Shown here: in pieces, positions 16,701-29,317 of the stretch
Layout: the number at the start of each line of letters is the position of its first letter
Numbering within the stretch: position 1 is the stretch's first letter
Translations under genes and position numbers: made by a program
NCBI GenBank assembly: GCA_014905635.1
Contig: JABVCE010000040.1
Coordinates: 62,001-126,000 of the forward strand
Source: Scenedesmus sp. PABB004
Lineage: Eukaryota
Direction of reading: 5' to 3'
Length of the DNA: 64,000 nucleotides
The notes under the pieces: model-generated
The model's input: only the letters and a program-made list of their open reading frames with translations
Database searches by the model: none
Told to the model about the DNA's origin: nothing

Positions 16701-17301
16701 TGCCGCCACTGCCAGCAGCCTGAGCCACAGCGCGCTGCCCTGCCAGCCAGGGTGCCGCTACTCACCAGGGGGACGTGGGGCTCGCTGGCGCGGGGCTGGC
16801 CGGCGCGGGGCTGGCCGGCGCGGGGCTGGCCGGCGCCGGGCTGGCCGGCGCAGGGCTGGCCGGCGCGGGGCTCGCTGGCGCCGGGCTGGCCGGCGTCTTC
16901 TGGCAGGTCGGGACGCCGTTCACCACCACGCGCGAGAAGCCCTTGTTGCAGCGCACGTCGCAGGCGAACACGCCGGCTGCGTCGGCGGCGCACGTCGCGC
17001 GGCCGCCCCTGGGCGGCTTGGCGCAGCGCGTGCAGGCCGTGCCGCACGCCTTCGTTGTCTTGCAGTTGCGCTGCAGCAGGCTGCGCCCAGGTGCACCTGC
17101 GGCGGGGCGGCGCGGGCGCGGGTGACGACGGGAGCGCAGGGCAGCGCCCGCGACGACCGCGGGCCTGCGCGGTGATCCACCTGCGCGATGCTCCATGTCA
17201 GCCGCCCCAACGATTGCCAGGACCGCTAGGAGCAGGATCAGCGCGCCGCAGCGGCCGCGGCACGGCCAGCGGCGGCGCGGCAGCCTGCTGTCCGGGGCCA
17301 T
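13784..17301 (-). CDS. Secreted papain-like (C1A) cysteine protease with Cys-rich N-domain, (PASPA)n linker, LysM-like segment and C-terminal RCC1/crinkly-like repeats
   Basis: Signal peptide ALILLLAVLAIVGAA. Catalytic motifs QDQRACSSCVAFA, WHAIMCYGW and K|NSWG. Repeats LSLGAYHSCAV..GVRCWG and LAVGFQNHACIV..RVACWG. Four introns give a continuous frame. Confidence 0.82.
16778..16895 (-). repeat. 15-bp coding tandem repeat encoding (PASPA)n
   Basis: GCCAGCCCCGCGCCG-type units seen directly; translation TPASPAPASPAPASPA... Confidence 0.9.
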
Positions 17302-17701
17302 CGCTGCGGCCTCGGCCCGCGCGCTGCGCTCCGCGGTCTAGTGGCTCCGCTGGCTCGGGTGTGAGTCTGGCTAGGTGCGGGAGACCTGTGACCGGCGTGG
17401 GGCGGCGAGCAGAAACCGCGCTGGGGATTTGGGTCACCGTCCCGCGGCCGCCGCCTGTGCGCGCCGGCGCGGGCTGGTGGGCTGGCGGGATGCACTGGCG
17501 GCGACACAGGCGAGGCGCAGAGCGGCGCAGGCGGGCCGGTGCGGCGGCGACACACCGGCCCGGCGCAGACACGGGCGTCACCCGCAGAGAGAGAGAGCGA
17601 GGTCGCCCCAGACGCAGATGCAGGCAGCGCCCGCGGCGGCCGAGAGCAGCGGGATGCGGTGGAACGAACGGGCGCATCTGCCTGCTCACAGCTCGGTCGA
17701 G

Positions 17702-20457
<2,756 letters not shown>

Positions 20458-20637
20458 GGCGGCTGCGCGGCGCGGCGCCGCGCAGGGGGGGAGGCGCCGC
20501 GGGCGGGCTGGGCGTGCGCTCGGCGCGGGGCTGGTCGGGGGCGCGCGCCGGCGCCACCGCGCCGCCGCCGCCCGCCGGGGGGGGCGCGCGGCGGCGGGCG
20601 GGTGGGCGGGCGGGGCTCGACGGGGGCCCGGGGCCTC

Positions 20638-20742
20638 TCAGCGCTCCGCGCCGCGGCGCCGCGGCGGCGGCGGCGCGCCCGCCGCCGCCGCCGCGCCGGC
20701 GCCCGCGTCCGGCCGGTGTGGGGCGAGGACGAGCAGCAGCAT
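20638..20742 (-). promoter_or_regulatory. Candidate riboswitch-controlled uORF (34 aa) behind an alternative 3' splice site
   Basis: Minus strand reads GGCGCAG|G-ATG CTG CTG CTC GTC..., giving [34 protein letters not shown]. It lies between the aptamer and the THI4 start. Confidence 0.6.
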
Positions 20743-20773
20743 CCTGCGCCGGGGGGTGCGCGTGCAAGTGCGG

Positions 20774-20866
20774 ACGCTTCCCTTCGCGCGCATTATCGCG
20801 TTCAGGTTCAAAGGGTATTTCTCAGCACACAACAGGGCCGAAGCGCCTGTGTGGCACCCCTAGCGT
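20774..20866 (-). ncRNA. TPP riboswitch aptamer in a THI4 5'-UTR intron
   Basis: Minus strand: ACGCT-AGGGGTGC-CACACAGGCGCTTCGGCCCTGTTGTGT-GCTGAGAAATACCCTTTGAACCTGAACGCGATAATGCGCGCGAAGGGA-AGCGT. Contains the conserved CUGAGA, AUACCC and GAACCUGA motifs. P1 ACGCU/AGCGU, P4 CCCUU/AAGGG, P5 CGCG/CGCG, and P3 capped by cUUCGg. Confidence 0.96.
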
Positions 20867-21713
20867 GTCTTTGTGTGAGAAATGGCCGGCCGCGGGCCGC
20901 GCCCGAGGCAGCAGGGGGCCGCGCCCGAGGCAGCAGGGCGCGCAGCTGCGGGCAGCCATGGCGCCACAACTGCGGTGCCCCCGAGCGCGCGGGCTGCGCG
21001 AGCGCATTGCTGCTGGCGGGCCGCTCCGCGCACGCGCCCGATCCCCCTGGCCCGCTGGCCCCGCTGCCGCGCTGCCGCAACGCGGCGCCGCGGCGGGGGC
21101 TGGCCTGGATCGCGCCGCATCCGCGGCCGGCCGCAGCGGCGCGCCGGGGCCGCGCCTCACCTGGTGCGTGCGAGGGACGAGGGCGCCGAAGGCGGTAGGG
21201 CCGGGGAGGGCTCCTGCGGGGCGGCAGCGGACGCGTGGGCGCGGGGGCGGCGCCTGCCGCATGCGTTGCCGGCCGCGCGCGCGGCGGGCCGCGTCCGATC
21301 GCGACGCGCGCTCACCTGGAGGTGGATGGGGGCGGGTGGGAGGCTGGAGAATGGCGGGCGGGGGCGAGGAGCGCCGCATTTAGCTGGTGGGGTTTGGGTT
21401 CTGCCACCTCAGCTCGGCCCGGCGCCGACGGCGCCTCGCTTGAGCTCCGTCGCGGCCGTGTCCGGTCGCTTCGTTACCGAGCGCGCCGCCACCGCTGCCG
21501 CGGCAAAGGCTGCGCCGCCGCGGGCGTGCCGCCGCCGGCCGCCGCCGCCGTGCTGAGGTGGTGATCGTACATCGTCTGCCCCCGCCGCCCCCTCCCGCCA
21601 AGCGTGTGCAAGTGCCAACCCCGGCGCGCGGCACAGCGCCTGCTGCCCCGCGCGCCGCGCGGCCGCCGTCGCGGGCCGCCGCTGCCTGCCCGCCGCGCGT
21701 GCGGACCAGGGGC

Positions 21714-22410
21714 TCAGCCCTTGAGCTTGGACTGCTGCCACCACACCGCGAACGCCGGGATGGCCACGCCGCTGCCGACGACGCCGCACACCCACGCGGC
21801 GACCTTCCACTGCCGCCCGGGCCACTGCGGGCGCGCGCGCGGCACGCGGGGCGACGGGCGCGCGAGGCGCGGCGGGCGGCGGCGGCGAGGGCGCGGCGGT
21901 GAGGGGCGTGCCGACGCCGGCTGCGCGCCGCCATCGATCAGGTCGCCGCCACGCGCAGCGCCGCGCGCGCCGCTGCTGGCCCCGCTGCTGCCGCTGCCGG
22001 AGCTGCCGCTCCGCGAGCCGCCGCGCCGATCGCGCGCGGCGCGGTGCCCGGGGGGCCGTGGGCGGCGCTCACGTCCTGGAAGTTCAGGTAGTTGGGGCCG
22101 TGCTCGTAGTCCTGCGCGGGGGCGGGCAGGCGATTGCCCGGAGGCAGCAGGCCGCCCGTGAGCTGGCGCCGGCGCGCCGCGGCCCGCGGCGCCGCGTGTG
22201 CGCCGGCTGGGCCCCGCCTGAGCCCGGGGGAGCCCCAGATCGGGCCGGCGCTGCGCCTGGCGCGCGGCGCGGGCGCGGGCGTGCACGCAGCGCCGCGCGG
22301 GCGCCTCTCACGTAGTGCGAGCGCGGGCCGGCGCTGGTGCGGAAGGTGCGGGTCGCCTTGGGCGCCTCCGCGGCCACGCCGCGGGCCAGGGCGCGCAGCG
22401 CGGCGGACAT
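21714..22410 (-). CDS. Cytochrome c oxidase subunit VIIc-like small mitochondrial protein (3 exons)
   Basis: Exons 22410-22312, 22111-22073 and 21824-21714 give MSAALRALARGVAAEAPKATRTFRTSAGPRSHYDYEHGPNYLNFQDWPGRQWKVAAWVCGVVGSGVAIPAFAVWWQQSKLKG. The presequence, RSHY..GP motif and single TM helix resemble COX7C. Confidence 0.72.
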
Positions 22411-22622
22411 GGTGCACGGGGCCGCTGCCGGCGAGGAGGAGGGCTGCTGCGCGCGCAGCCGGCGGCGGGGAACGAGGGGGACGCGGCGGGCGCCGGGGCA
22501 CCACCACCGCGCGCTGGACGATGCCCGCTGCGCCGCCGCTCTGCGCCCCGCCGCTGCACCCCCGCAGGGCGCGCGGCCGGCAGGGGGGAGGCAGGTTGCG
22601 TTGCCGCCGCAGCCACGCTGCA

Positions 22623-24217
22623 TCAGCCGCCCGAGGCGCACGCCGCGCAGCGCGCCGCCGCCTCGGCGCCGCGCTCGGCGGGCGCGCCGAGCGCCGCAAA
22701 GTGCGCCGCCGCGGCGTCCAGCATCTGCTCCGTGCCGCCGCACCACTTGACGTCCGCGACCACGAAGCGCCCCGGGTCGGCCGCCACCGCGGCCTCGACG
22801 CTCGCCTGCGGCGCGGCGCGGCCGTCTCGGACAGGCGCCCGTCCGACGCGGCGCCCCGGCGCGGCTGCACCCTCGCCCGCGCCGCCGCCGCCGCCGGCGC
22901 CGCCGCCGCCGCACCGCGCCGACGCTGGGCAGGAAGGCCTTGCCCACGGCGGCGGCGAGCGCGAGGTCGTTGTCGTCATCGCCGAGGTGGCCGCAGCGGT
23001 CGGCCTGCACGCCCCAGCGCGCCATGAGCCGCGCCGCGGCGCCCTGCTTGCCGCTCGCGGCGGGGTAAAAGTCGGTGACGCCCAGGTTGACGCTGCTCGC
23101 CACGCCCGGCGGCGCCGCCGCGACGGCGGCGCGCAGCTCGGCCTCGCCCCGGCCAGGCGTGGGCGTGAGCCTGCGGCGGCGGCGGCGGCGGCGCGCGCGT
23201 CGGCGCGCGCGTCGGCGGCGGCGGCCCCCGCTGCGTGAGGCGGCGACGCCCACGCCTAGCGCCGCCGCTGCCCCTGGGCGGGCGCTCACCGGAAGCAGGT
23301 GGAGTAAGAGTTGCTGTCGAGGCGCCACCCCTGCCGGTGCAGCTCGCGATACCACTCCCACAGAACGCCCTGGCCACCGCGGCAGCGGCGGCGGCGCGCG
23401 CGGTGTCGGCGCCGGCCGGAGCGGCAGGCGCGGGGACGCGGCGCCGCGCCGCGCCCGCCGCGCACCTCGCGCTCCAGCGGCGGCCGCACGTCCTGGCCGG
23501 GCGGGCCCGCGACGGCCGCGAGCTGCTGCCGCCACTCGAGGTCCTCCACCAGGGGGCAGGCTGGCCAGGGGCGGGTCGGGGGCGGGCCAGGGCGGCGTCG
23601 CGTCGCGTTGCGCGGGGCGGCGCCGCGGCGCCTCCCGCCCACAGGGCGCGCGGCTGCTGCCGCGCGCCCCGCCGGGCCGTTGCCGCCGCCGCCGCCGCCG
23701 CCCCTTTAATCCACCCACCCGTGAGGCCCTGGGGGTCGGGGTACCAGATGCGGCCGCCATTCTCGGCGACGACGGCGTCCGCGGCCGGCAGGAACGGCAG
23801 GCGCTGCAGTACCGTCGACGTGCGCGCGCCCGAGACCAGCACAAACGCGCCGCCCGCCGCGCGCAGCGCGGCCGCCTTTTCGAGCGTCAGGCGTGAGATA
23901 ACGCCCTGGTGGCGCGGGGGCGGCGCGTGGGCCTCCGGGCGCGCGCTGCCAGCGCTGCCAGCCCGCCAAGCGCGCGCGGCCGCCGCCGCTGCTCACCAGG
24001 CGGCCCGTGGCCGACTGCGGCAGCAGCAGCAGCTCCCCCACCACCTGCGCGGCGCCGGCGCGCGTGGGCGGGCGGGCGGGCGGCCGGCCGGCGCGGCAGC
24101 GGCAGCGGCGGCGCGCACCTCCTGCAGCTGCGACGGGTCCAGGTAGTGGACGAGCGTGCCGTCGATGTCGCTGAAGCAGATGAACGAGAAGCGCGGCGCC
24201 GGCGGCGGCGTCGCCAT
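22623..24217 (-). CDS. HAD-superfamily IIB (Cof/sucrose-phosphatase-like) phosphatase
   Basis: Motif I FSDIDGTLV, motif II LVSGAR, VVAENGG, motif III SGK and motif IV LGDDDNDL. Confidence 0.85.
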
Positions 24218-24477
24218 CCCGCCGCTGCTTGCGGTGCTGCTTACGCCTGAGCGCCTGAGCGTCCTCCTGCGTGGGCGCGATCGCGCTTGTGGATGCAGGC
24301 GCTTGTCGTTGACGGAGCACCGCGAGCGGTGGCAGCCGCGCGGGCGCGGCGCGCCGCCGCTCAAGACCTACTGACGCCGCGCTGGCCACAGAGCTGCAGG
24401 CTGCGCCCAGCGCACCACGAGAGCTGCAGCTGACGGCCGAAACTGCCGTCACAGTTTGCGCGCTGCCGGGCGCCACC

Positions 24478-25854
24478 ATGCTGCTGCGCGCGCCGCCGCC
24501 CGCCGCTGCTGCCTGCGGCGCGGGCGCCGCGCGCCGCGTGCGCGCACAGCGGCCGGCGCCGGCCGGCGGCGGCGGCCCTCCCGCAGCCGCCCAGCTGCTG
24601 GCGTGCAGGGCGGCGCCCGCCGCGCGGCGGCGCCCGCCACGGCGCGGCGGCGCGCTGGCGGCGCGCGCGAGCCTGTTCGACGATCCGCTCGACGCGCGGC
24701 AGCCGGCCAACCCGCACCCCTCGCTCGCCAACGCGGGTGCGCCGCGCACGCCCGCTGCGGCGGCCGCCAACGGGCAGCCGGCCAGGCCAGGCCAGGCCCC
24801 TGCGGCGCGTTGCCACCAAAAAACGCCCGCGCGCCTGCGGCCGCCGCAGACCTGCTGCCGACGCCGGCGGCCGCGCGTTCATTTGGCGCGCTTGAGTTTG
24901 CGAGCCTGTGGGTCACGCTGGTCATCAGCATCACGACCTACGTGCTCGCCGCCAACCTGGTGCAGCTGGGCATGAGCTGGTGGCAGGGCGTCGGCACGGT
25001 GCTCTTCGCAAACGTCCTCACGCTCGTCCCCCTGACCCTGAACGCCCACCCGGGTGCGCGCCGCGCGGCGCGGGTGCCGACCAGGGCCCCGCCCCGCCGC
25101 GCCGCGCCGCCACTCTGGGCCCCGCGCCGCCTCCCGCCAGGCACAAAGTATGGCATCCCTTTCCCGGTGCTCGCGCGAGCCAGCTTTGGCATCAAGGTGC
25201 GGCCAGGCAGCTCAGGCCCCCCCGGGCGGCTGGGGCCGGCGGCCGCCGGCCGCGCGGCGGAGGCCGGGCGGCGCGCGAGTGGGCGCCGCGGCGCGCCGCG
25301 CGGGGGCGGGGCGGGGTCGCGGTCGCCGCCCCGCCATGGACCCGCCGCCGCCTCCGACAGGGGGCCAACCTGCCGTCCCTCGCGCGAGCGCTCGTGGCGG
25401 TGGGGTGGTTCAGTATCCAGACCTGGATCGGCGGCTCGGCGCTGCATCAAATGCTCGCGACGCTCGGCGGCGCGGCGCTCGTGGGCGGCGCGCCGCTCGC
25501 GTGGCTGGGCATCTCCGCCAGCCAGCTCGCCTGCTTCCTGGCGTTCTGGGCGCTGCAGGCGCGCCCGCGGCGCCCCCGCCCGCCCGCCCCCGCGCGGCGC
25601 ACAGCGCGGCTCGTCCGCGGCAGCTCGCCCCGCCCCGCGCCGCGCGGCGCGGCGCCCGGCTGCGCCCGGCCCGGCTCACGGCTCCTGCGCGTGCGCCGTG
25701 CAGGCGGCCATAATCTTTCGTGGCATCGAATGCATCAAAGAGGTCGAGAAGGCCTCCGCGCCCATCCTGGTGGCGCTCGCGGCGGCGCTGATGTGGTGGT
25801 GCGGCCGCCGGCGCCGCGTCGCTCCGTGACCGCGTGCGACGGCTGCTCGCCCGA

Positions 25855-25901
<47 letters not shown>

Positions 25902-27234
25902 GCGCGGCGCGCCGCCCCGCGCAGGGCGCTGACGACGGCGGGCGGGCTCGGGCCGATGCTGGCGGCGCCGTCGCAGTTTGGCCCCGGCATGCCGCAGGAG
26001 GGGCGGTTCTGGTCGGTCTTCGTCCCCGCGGTCACCGCCAACGTCGGCTACTGGGGCACGCTGGCGCTGAACATCCCAGACTTCAGCAGGCGCGGCGGCG
26101 CCGGCACCAGCGGCGGCGGCGGCCGCGGCGGCGCCGGCGGGCGCGCCCCGCGCGCCGACGCCGCGGCGCCGCCCCGCCGCCTCGCCCTGTCCCTGCCCTC
26201 CCCTCGCCCGCGCGCCCAGGTTTGCGACGAGCCAGCGCGCGCAGGCGGTGGGCCAGGCCGCGGGGCTGCCGCTGACGATGGCGGCGTTCAGCTTTGTCGG
26301 CCTCGCCGTGACCTCGGCGACGATTGTCATATGGGGCGCGCCCGTGACCGACCCGGTCGCGCTGCTTTCCCACATGACCCACCCGGGCGCAGTGATGCTA
26401 AGCCTCTTTGGTGCGCGGCGGTCACGCGTGGGGCGCGCGGGCGCGCCACGCGGCGGTCACGCGTGGGGCGCGCGGGCGCGCGGGCGCGCCGCGCGGCGGT
26501 CGCGCGTGTGAGCGCCGCCGAGCTGCGAGCCGCGCCCGCTGTGAGCCGCGCCCGCCCGCGCCCGCGCGGCCGCCAGGCCTCACGCTCGCGACGCTGACGA
26601 CCAACGTCGCGGCCAACGTCGTCGCGCCGGCCAACGCGCTGCTCAACGCCGCGCCCGCGCTCTCCTTCCGCGCCGCGGGCGTCGGCGCGGCAGCGCTCGC
26701 GCTCGCGGCGTCGCCGTGGCGTCTGATGGGCGGGTTCCTCAACTGGCTCGTCGCCTATTCGGCGCTGCTCGGCCCCGTCGTGGGCGTCATCCTGGCTGAC
26801 TATTACGTCATCCGCCGCCGCGCCCTCGACGTCGACGCCCTCTACTCGGCCGACCCCGCGGGCGCGTACTGGTACTCGGTGCGCGGCCCGGGGCGCGCGG
26901 CGCCCGCCGCCGCGGCCGGCGGGGGCGGCGCGCGCGCGGGGGCGGGGGCGGTCGCGCGCGCGCCGGCGGCGGCGCCGCCTGCCGAGCTCGCCGCCGCCGC
27001 GCGGCGCGCATGCAGGGCGGCGTCAACCCCGCCGCGCTGCTCGCGGTCGGCGCGGGCGCGGCGCCGTGCCTGCCGGGGCTCGCGGCGTCGCTCGGGCTCG
27101 CGCGCGTGGCGCCGGTGTGGCCCGCGATCTACGACGGTGCGTGGTTCGTGTCGGTGGCCGTCGCGGCGGTGGTGTACGTCGCCGCGATGCGCGCGCGGCG
27201 CGCGCCCGGCGCGGCGCCCGCGGCGGCGGGCTGA
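24478..27234 (+). CDS. NCS1: Nucleobase:cation symporter-1 (NCS1/PLUTO-like), with transit peptide
   Basis: [80 protein letters not shown]. Confidence 0.93.
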
Positions 27235-27721
27235 GCCGCGCGTGGCGGCGGCGCGGGGTGAGGTGTGCAGCGGCCCGCCCCGGGCGGCAGCGCGCTGAAC
27301 CGCCCGAGCTCTGGCTGACAGGCGTATCGTGAGGCCCGCCGCCGAGCGCACCGTGTGTCCCAGATCCGTCCAGGCAGAGAGGGGTCGCAGCCTGCGCGGC
27401 GGGGGCCAGCGGCGCCGCCAGCCGTCGGCGATCCTCATTCGCCGCCCTCCCCCGCTGACGCCCGCCCGCCCGCCGCCCGCCGCCGACGGCCGCCGCCCGC
27501 CGCCGACGGCCGCCGCGCGCTGCGCGCAGCGCCGAGCTCGAGGCCGTGCTGCGCGGCACGCCGCACGCGCTGAGCTTGGCGGCGATCGAGGAGCTGCTCG
27601 CAGCCGATTCGCTCTTCATCCTGGACGCGGGCGGCACCGTGCGGCTCGACCTCGCGCGCCTCTCCAGCAACGCGAAGGGCTGGTGGGCCGGCGGCGGGGG
27701 CGCCGGCGACGCCTCGCGCCT

Positions 27722-27795
27722 AGATAAAGATAAAGATAGTTACACCACAGGCTCGCGCCCATTGGTCCCGCGCCCCTTAAGGACGGTGTCCTTAA
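27722..27795 (-). mobile_element. 74-bp insertion, probable 5'-truncated non-LTR retroelement 3' end
   Basis: Flanked by the duplication GCGCCT (27716-27721 and 27796-27801). More AT-rich than its surroundings. The minus strand ends TGTAAC-TATCTTTATCTTTATCT. Confidence 0.72.
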
Positions 27796-29317
27796 GCGCC
27801 TGCCGCACGAGGTCGTCGCCACGATCGACGCGGTGTGGCCGCCGGGCGCGGCCGACGCCGCGGCGCGGCTCACGCGCGCGCTCGCGCTCGCGCTCGCGCG
27901 GCCGCCGCACCGCAAGCACAGCGAGACGCTGCGGGCAGACGTGCCAGCAATGACAGGCATTTCGATCTACAACTACGGCGTGCGCGTGGGCTTTTGCACG
28001 CTGCTCGCGGGCGACCCCGGCGCGTGCTTTTCGGTTGAGCGCGACCCCGCCGACGCGACCGGCCGGACGCACTGGGTCGAGCTGCGCGTCGACCGCCTGA
28101 TCGCGCGCGCCGCCGGCGCGGCGGCGCGGCAGCCCGCGCGCGCGCCGGCCGCGCCCGCGCCCGCGCCCGCGGCGCCGCCGCAGCAGCACGCGCCGCAGCG
28201 GCAGCTGCAGCCGGGCTCGCCGGCGCCGCAGTGGCAGCTGCCGGCGGCCCAGCAGGCGCCCGCGGCCGCCGACGTCATGGCGGCAGTCGGGGCGGCCATC
28301 GCGGCGCTCTGGCCGCCCGCCGCCGGCGGCGACCCGGACGCGCGGGTGAAGTGGGCAGCCGCCGCGGCGCTGGTGGGCGCCGGCCCGGCGCTGCGCCTGG
28401 GCGCGGTGGAGCTGGAGGCGCGCGTGAGCGCCTCGGAGGGCGCCATGGCGCTGGCGCTCTTGAGCGCGCCGCTGCTGCAGGTGCTGGGCCGGGAGCCGGC
28501 CTTTTCCGTCACCGACGACGGCGCGCCCGGCGGCTGCCACGTGGCGCTCCTGCCCGACGTGCTGCTGGCCCGCGCGGGCCTCCCGCCGCTGCAGCGCGAG
28601 CCGGCGCCGACGCCGACGCCAATGGGCCCCGGCGCCGACGCCACCGCCAGCTGGCGCGGCGAGCGCGCGGCGCTGCCGGCGGAGCAGCAGCAGCCGGCGG
28701 CGCTGCCGCCGGAGCAGCAGCAGCAGCTGCTGGCCGTCGCGTCTGCCCGGCGCTGGCACGCGGACAAGACGACGCACGTGCTGCGACGCGCGCTGGCGCT
28801 CGCGGCCCTGCTGCGAGGCCATCGGGAGGCGCCGCCGCCGGGCAGGCACACAGAGGGCTTGGGGCTGTCGGCCGCCACAGTGGGTGCGGGGCGCGGCCGG
28901 CGAGGGCCCGCGCGCGCGCGCCGCGCTGCGCCGTTCGCGCTGATCCTTCCCCGCCCGCCGCCCGCAGCCGCCGTGATGGTGCAGGCGCTGAGCATGGCCG
29001 GCCTGCGCGGCCCGCCGCCCGACCTTCCGGCGGCCCTGGCGGGCGACATCTTCCTGCGGCATCGCCCCGCCAAGGGTGGCCGGGGTGTGTGGCTCGACTG
29101 TTCGCTGCTGCTCGACCAGGGCGGGGGCAAGCAGCAGGGCCGCGCGGACGCCTCGGACAGGTGGCGGGGCGCGCCGCCCGGCGTGCCAGCGGCAACGGCG
29201 GCGCCCGGCGGCCCAGGCGGCACCGCAGCCAGCAGACCGGGCGAGGTCGGGTGCACTTTGGTGGTGCAGCAGCCGCCGCAGCAGCTGCCGCCGCCTCAGC
29301 AGCAGCCGCTGCCGCCT

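Follow-up and report, generated by a model that had tools for sequence, protein, structure and literature searches.

In the 64,000-nt stretch of the Scenedesmus sp. PABB004 genome analyzed here (contig JABVCE010000040.1, positions 62,001 to 126,000, termed the window, with coordinates counted from its first letter), an aptamer for thiamine pyrophosphate (TPP) lies on the minus strand in the 5′ leader of THI4, the thiazole synthase gene. Most likely, this element is a riboswitch that represses THI4 at high TPP through the choice of 3′ splice site in an intron of the 5′ untranslated region (UTR). We put the probability that it works through splicing together with uORF exposure (uORF, upstream open reading frame) at roughly 0.75, and give about even odds to the regulated acceptor being an AG dinucleotide located inside aptamer stem P2 (20861-20860). 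To our knowledge, eukaryotic riboswitches are few, and only for a few model species has their mechanism been elucidated.

The Rfam model of the TPP riboswitch (RF00059) matches positions 20871-20762 of the minus strand with a score of 63.7 bits (gathering score 54.3, E 3.7e-10), spanning model positions 1-105 of 105. This is the sole gathering-level Rfam match in the 64 kb, and it was recovered again in a permissive scan. In the covariance alignment the CUGAGA junction falls at 20825-20820, and the ACCCUUUGAACCUGA segment as well as the P4/P5 hairpin with its UAAUG loop are in place; the aptamer goes without the optional P3a stem and all consensus junctions are intact. The 93-nt core on its own folds into the P1-P5 architecture with a minimum free energy (MFE) of -33.6 kcal/mol. 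An initial annotation of this DNA, made by inspection of the sequence, had placed a full TPP aptamer at 20774-20866, which corresponds exactly to the P1-to-P1 core, and the covariance-model comparison that it proposed as a check is the one that gave the score above the gathering value. The score, the P1-P5 architecture with the pyrimidine-sensing CUGAGA junction and the P4/P5 arm that senses pyrophosphate, and a thiamine gene on the same strand, with its ATG 305 nt 3′ of the aptamer, together assign the element to RF00059. We regard it as very probably a genuine TPP riboswitch acting on THI4, with TPP binding predicted from these features.

By its conceptual translation, the gene downstream of the aptamer is a nuclear THI4. 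Pfam was searched exon by exon with the translations of five exons (1, 2, 3, 6 and 7), and the Thi4 profile (PF01946) matched four of the five with E-values from 1.6e-24 to 5.3e-12 and in colinear profile segments (1-34, 38-81, 123-199 and 200-235); the N-terminal exon is the one of the five submitted that gave no PF01946 match. Exon 6 has its best named relatives in chlorophycean algae: Tetradesmus obliquus (94%), Chromochloris (90%) and Monoraphidium (88%). All six coding-region introns end in CAG behind a C-rich tract. Intron 4 (19284-19062) has a GC donor, AAG/GCGCGG ... CGCAG/G (slashes mark splice junctions), and must be a GC-AG intron because its 223 nt are not divisible by 3 and include no GT. 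A telomere-repeat-like 12-mer, CCCTAAACCCTG, is present in introns 1 and 2 (20097-20086 and 19723-19712, minus strand), in both cases about 30-45 nt ahead of the acceptor, and may represent the branch-site context of this organism.

The exon and intron assignments in the leader are predictions from sequence (Table 1). On its minus strand the whole window has three AGGTGAG motifs, where about 1.8 are expected, and two of the three are the leader donors 21160 and 21315, located 155 nt apart; these two donors are hardly a chance occurrence. The initial annotation had listed both of them together with acceptors at 21214, 20745-20744 and 20464-20463 and the 34-codon uORF at 20742-20638, and every one of these motifs is present where it was placed. 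As for its choice of 20463 as the distal acceptor, the motif does lie 5 nt before the ATG, but it is not unique, and the CAG sites at 20508 and 20531 would likewise give an AUG-free leader. Between the aptamer and the THI4 ATG we found no donor of the GUGAG or GUGCG type, and therefore use of an internal acceptor would lead to retention of the following sequence and not to a cassette exon. A perfect 22-bp tandem duplication (2.0 copies, 100% match, 20894-20938) is located in the putative intron, directly upstream of an AU-rich stretch.

Three elements overlooked by the initial annotation are central to the model favored here: the AG in P2 (20861-20860), an AUG in aptamer loop L5 (20793), and the AU-rich stretch at 20883-20872, which is complementary to part of the aptamer. 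The P2 segment carries the AGGG motif with its AG, used here as a mark of the Chlamydomonas type, making it a candidate splice site, and we favor this AG because PMC9544697 reports the P2 AG as the acceptor for green algae as well as for plants. The sequence that would be retained holds a uORF ahead of the main reading frame, as it does in a Chlamydomonas-type switch. At the base composition of the window about 1.7 ATGs per 400 nt are expected by chance (arithmetic from the base counts), stop codons are rare at 79% GC, and the presence of a uORF would alone be weak evidence.

The AU-rich stretch runs directly 5′ of P1 and belongs to one of the only 34 places in the window where at least 12 of 20 positions are A or T. 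Its target is the aptamer junction CUGAGAAAU, which is complementary to this U-rich sequence, and the predicted helix between 20883-20872 and 20829-20817 comprises 12 bp and one bulge. The helix is part of the MFE fold in all three contexts that include the flank, it recurs in a separate fold prediction (-44.8 kcal/mol, z -2.1), and in four contexts, the whole 698-nt putative intron among them, its bases pair with probabilities of 0.83-1.00. Enforcing the aptamer fold costs 10.4 kcal/mol in a 121-nt context, 12.6 in 141 nt and 14.2 in 761 nt (the last for the ensemble), and we estimate that 10-14 kcal/mol is of the order that a nanomolar ligand could pay. When the 24-nt 5′ flank was shuffled, the advantage of the alternative fold reached at least 10.4 kcal/mol in 4 of 300 cases, and a shuffled 20-nt stretch equalled the natural duplex energy in 95 of 5000.

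Per-base accessibility was then compared between the free ensemble and an ensemble with the aptamer fold enforced. Outside the aptamer, large shifts are confined to 20883-20867, with smaller ones at a few positions just 3′ of P1. The stretch that opens contains a branch-site-like CUCAC located 16 nt ahead of the P2 AG and resembling the one that THI4 intron 6 carries close to its 3′ end. These folding results raise the prospect of a branch-site unmasking device, in which the 12-bp helix ties the CUGAGA junction to the branch-site and pyrimidine region serving P2, so that TPP binding and spliceosome access would both follow from a single strand exchange; we offer this part of the model tentatively and consider it rather doubtful.

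The sequence of events that we infer is as follows. Without TPP, 20883-20872 would pair with 20829-20817 and keep the aptamer unfolded, and the same pairing would hide the CUCAC and the pyrimidine stretch that serve the P2 AG. Donor 21160 would then be joined to the distal acceptor 20463 (or to 20508 or 20531), giving an AUG-free leader from which THI4 is translated. With TPP, the aptamer would fold, the stretch 20883-20872 would be freed and the P2 AG would be used; since no good GU donor follows, about 400 nt would be retained. The retained piece would open the 51-codon uORF at the L5 AUG, which ends 181 nt before the THI4 AUG, and this uORF would block THI4 translation and probably invite nonsense-mediated decay. 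The polarity of this model matches that of Chlamydomonas THI4, because there TPP leads to uORF retention and repression (PMC12371167).

Several observations weigh against this model. The P2 site is a UAG behind a purine-rich AAAGA, unlike the CAG acceptors with C-rich tracts of all six coding-region introns, and the P2 AG is base-paired in the TPP-bound fold. One coding-region intron has a GC donor, and GC-type donors 3′ of the aptamer could thus change the isoforms. As for the anti-aptamer helix, dinucleotide-shuffled versions of the upstream 294 nt gave an equal or better duplex with the core in 432 of 500 trials, and of 7526 genomic windows, 1624 match the duplex energy of the local stretch. 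The helix energy is unremarkable in GC-rich DNA, with only the composition-matched flank shuffles speaking for it. The full-context gap of 14.2 kcal/mol is on the high side, and folding kinetics could trap the unbound form, because the anti-helix strand is made earlier than the remainder of the aptamer. Predicted diatom TPP aptamers are described as unresponsive to thiamine (PMC9544697), and therefore a good aptamer score is no proof of regulation. Finally, aptamer-pattern scans of metagenome, genome and viral contigs gave, among the loci listed, no relative of the leader that would allow a covariation or conservation test. At least 120 loci in metagenome contigs carry an aptamer-like pattern; a tblastn search with the THI4 of the window found a Thi4 homologue in only two of the 120 listed, both uninterrupted, about 31% identical and of prokaryote type, and in blastn the matching to these loci was limited to the 25-28 nt universal core. 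A stricter aptamer pattern gave 21 loci in genome contigs, all titled as bacteria, and none in viral contigs.

Other explanations share the aptamer and differ in what it is thought to control. The initial annotation had proposed that TPP shifts splicing from donor 21160 to the acceptor at 20745-20744, about 30 nt past the aptamer, leaving an RNA that starts with the 34-codon uORF, and that CUGAA, which lies in P4, may be the branch point. The acceptor itself looks typical: it has a C-rich tract and GCAG/G like the six coding-region acceptors (a comparison based on 6 introns), an AUG with A at -3 follows at once, and three adenosines 12-25 nt upstream have a predicted accessibility of at least 0.84. 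However, no coupling to the aptamer is predicted, as its tract and AG have equal predicted accessibility whether or not the aptamer is folded and the AG is paired in both states, and a good acceptor constitutively open at this position would place the uORF in all transcripts. The CUGAA is predicted to be open in the ligand-free state and half-buried in the aptamer fold (0.98 to 0.50), which implies use when TPP is low, opposite in polarity to what feedback repression requires, and the acceptor reported in PMC9544697 for green algae and plants lies in P2 and not 3′ of the aptamer. We therefore consider this version unlikely. The broader logic of Chlamydomonas THI4, to which the initial annotation appealed, fares better: a TPP aptamer ahead of THI4, chlorophycean relatives and splicing-linked uORF exposure all find support, while its acceptor and branch point are not favored.

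Alternatively, TPP could inhibit removal of the whole aptamer-containing intron. Retention would repress translation, given the intron AUGs at 21120, 21007, 20959, 20793 and 20742, which would leave an unspliced leader with several upstream AUGs untranslated; thiamine-inhibited 5′-UTR splicing is described for Aspergillus oryzae thiA (PMC10226581), and according to PMC5997356, Croft 2007 predicted a TPP-dependent pairing of the branch point that prevents splicing in algae. Yet the predicted accessibility of donor 21160 and of the distal acceptor is unchanged by the aptamer fold, and the distal branch site must be about 300 nt away from the aptamer with eight AGs in between, so that we judge this reading quite unlikely. 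With duplex energies of -14.9 and -17.8 kcal/mol against the P4/P5 half (GU not covered), the two leader donors are no more complementary to it than six coding-region donors (-11.2 to -21.6), and masking of a 5′ splice site by P4/P5, as in plants and fungi, finds no support in this range or in the donor accessibility of 0.23 in both states. It is also conceivable that the aptamer is conserved without regulating THI4, as a relic or in another role, or that it acts on translation from a 5′ UTR that is not spliced. Well-conserved diatom aptamers failed to respond to thiamine (PMC9544697), and many TPP riboswitches of marine algae are described from the 5′ UTRs of genes that have no apparent spliceoforms (PMC4260697). 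Against this, the score is well over the Rfam cut-off with the consensus junctions all intact, two very strong donors lie upstream, the AGGG in P2 is kept, which is absent in the diatom aptamers (PMC9544697), and the THI4 relatives are chlorophycean, a group in which experiments have established the THI4 and THIC switches of Chlamydomonas (PMC12371167, PMC9544697); such a non-regulating or purely translational element is thus improbable. TPP-dependent choice of the 3′ splice site with exposure of a uORF remains our favored reading.

Table 1. Features of the THI4 locus in the window. The last two columns give predicted accessibility in the free ensemble and in the ensemble with the aptamer fold enforced.
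Feature	Position	Strand	Description	Free	Aptamer enforced
THI4 coding region	18024..20457	-	splice model, 7 exons, 1107 nt in frame, 368 amino acids; ATG at 20457		
THI4 exons	20457-20221, 20054-19947, 19677-19537, 19359-19285, 19061-18999, 18725-18492, 18272-18024	-			
34-codon uORF	20638..20742	-	ATG 20742, TGA 20638; within the 51-codon uORF, same frame		
51-codon uORF	20638..20793	-	AUG in aptamer loop L5, A at -3; TGA ending at 20638		
Distal (constitutive) candidate acceptor, GCGCAG/C	AG 20463..20464	-	5 nt before THI4 ATG	tract 0.20, AG 0.12	tract 0.20, AG 0.12
Candidate alternative acceptor, CACCCCCCGGCGCAG/G (GCGCAG/G)	AG 20744..20745	-	resembles coding-region acceptors	tract 0.57, AG 0.20	tract 0.60, AG 0.20
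TPP riboswitch aptamer	20762..20871	-	Rfam RF00059; P1-to-P1 core 20866-20774		
Segment holding CUGAA (20805-20801)	20801..20806	-		0.98	0.50
Partner strand UGUG-C-UGAGAAAU	20817..20829	-	P3 3′ strand and CUGAGA junction; C20825 bulged		
Candidate TPP-dependent 3′ splice site, CUAG/GGGUGCC	AG 20860..20861	-	AG in stem P2; retained exon would start at 20859		
AU-rich stretch AUUUCUCACACA	20872..20883	-	directly 5′ of P1; proposed to act as anti-aptamer strand and as branch-site/pyrimidine region for the P2 acceptor (CUCAC, A 20876)	0.00-0.17	0.54-1.00
Predicted donor, CAG/GUGAGG	21155..21163	-	intron from 21160; from sequence	0.23	0.23
Predicted non-coding exon	21161..21213	-	53 nt, AUG-free; acceptor CCCCGCAG/G (AG 21215-21214) to donor 21160		
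Predicted first 5′-UTR intron	21214..21315	-	CAG/GUGAGC ... CGCAG/G		

The G+C content is 72-82% in each 2-kb bin across the window and about 79% overall, and, together with the THI4 similarities, points to a very GC-rich genome of a chlorophycean green alga. At 79% GC all six frames stay open for hundreds of codons, which makes lists of open reading frames uninformative; third-position GC periodicity still picks out the exons despite the open frames. Upstream of THI4 on the same strand lies a small gene of about three exons (about 22415-21716) with strong third-position GC periodicity and a hydrophobic C-terminal segment, for which Pfam gave no match with the two exons tried. Its stop codon at about 21716 bounds the leader, and for this reason the THI4 transcription start is placed between about 21716 and 21316. 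Read from the coordinates, a reading frame begun at an AUG at 21379 would extend, out of frame, across the THI4 start, and the start of transcription is therefore argued to be downstream of 21379. A TATA-like CTAAAT (21383-21378, minus strand) is located 30 nt 5′ of an initiator-like CCATTCT (21354-21348). If these two form the core promoter, exon 1 of THI4 would be only about 37 nt long and AUG-free.

Two genes upstream of THI4, a HAD-like hydrolase gene (about 24217 to 22620, minus strand) shows DxDGT and GDxxND motifs in its translations; its Hydrolase_3 matches are weak and colinear and fall under the Pfam cut-off. Some HAD-IIB enzymes act on thiamine precursors. Divergent from it, a gene for an NCS1-family permease runs from 24479 to beyond 27000 on the plus strand, with several exons and an Ala/Arg-rich N-terminal extension, and two of its exons match PF02133 ("cytosine/purines, uracil, thiamine, allantoin") with E-values of 2.6e-18 and 5.8e-21. 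A thiamine-related role for this permease is possible but not indicated, and a permissive Rfam rescan of 17000-29000 at E up to 5 found no second TPP aptamer that could serve, for example, the permease. The neighborhood of THI4, the HAD-like gene and the NCS1 gene may deserve a look.

The arrangement of a riboswitch in the THI4 leader is already known from Chlamydomonas and will not surprise a specialist. Among the matches listed in our literature search there was no mention of a TPP riboswitch in Sphaeropleales genera, which does not cleanly show that none is in print. The expression platforms described in the sources we found include 5′ splice site masking, long-range looping and a predicted TPP-induced pairing of the branch point (PMC5997356 for the last). 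Branch-site control is thus not a new idea, and only the release on binding together with the CUGAGA partner would be new; our search found no description of ligand-induced branch-site release, which Croft 2007, Moulin 2013, Mehrshahi 2020 and Wachter 2007 may already contain. If the helix is not real, the locus would be an ordinary further example of a known regulatory arrangement. If it is, it would make a simple, transferable scheme for choosing 3′ splice sites under ligand control, of relevance for the toolkits of algal riboswitches based on Chlamydomonas THI4. In either case, the comparative set grows by a THI4 aptamer that scores well and comes from a second chlorophycean lineage, one with an extreme genome of about 79% GC, and because its AU-rich functional elements contrast sharply with the GC-rich background, the expression platform can be read and tested with unusual ease.

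Among the known systems, the diatom THIC and SSSP aptamers resemble the present one in having been found by sequence alone and in their conserved core; they differ in their 3′-UTR location, in carrying GCGG instead of AGGG in P2, and in showing no thiamine response according to PMC9544697. The plant THIC switch likewise has a eukaryote-type aptamer with an AG acceptor in P2, and TPP-dependent splicing lowers expression, but it resides in the 3′ UTR, where P4/P5 masks a 5′ splice site and a processing signal is removed (PMC10226581, PMC3597705, PMC9544697), whereas no donor in the THI4 leader has a special complementarity to P4/P5 or a change in accessibility. In Neurospora crassa NMT1 and THI4 the aptamer sits in a 5′-UTR intron, as is predicted here, and TPP gives a longer leader whose uORFs compete with the main reading frame; the fungal switches, however, pick between two 5′ splice sites via P4/P5 pairing (PMC3597705, PMC5997356, PMC5882874), while in the present leader the predicted choice concerns 3′ splice sites, with a competing helix that involves the CUGAGA junction.

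The closest counterpart is the THI4 switch of Chlamydomonas reinhardtii, in which TPP-dependent alternative splicing of the 5′ UTR retains a uORF and represses the gene (PMC12371167, PMC9544697). Both share the gene, the position in the 5′ leader, the aptamer type with AGGG and its AG in P2, and a uORF in the sequence retained by alternative splicing (predicted in the present case), and both belong to the same algal class as judged by THI4 similarity. At the order level they part, as the best named relatives of the window are Tetradesmus, Chromochloris and Monoraphidium and not Chlamydomonadales; the genome here has about 79% GC, and its leader measures about 0.9 kb against a 5′ UTR of 1414 bp there (PMC4515103). 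With no good GU donor 3′ of the aptamer, the long isoform in Scenedesmus would be the product of an alternative 3′ site and not an inserted cassette. The long isoform of Chlamydomonas THI4 probably arises as a cassette.

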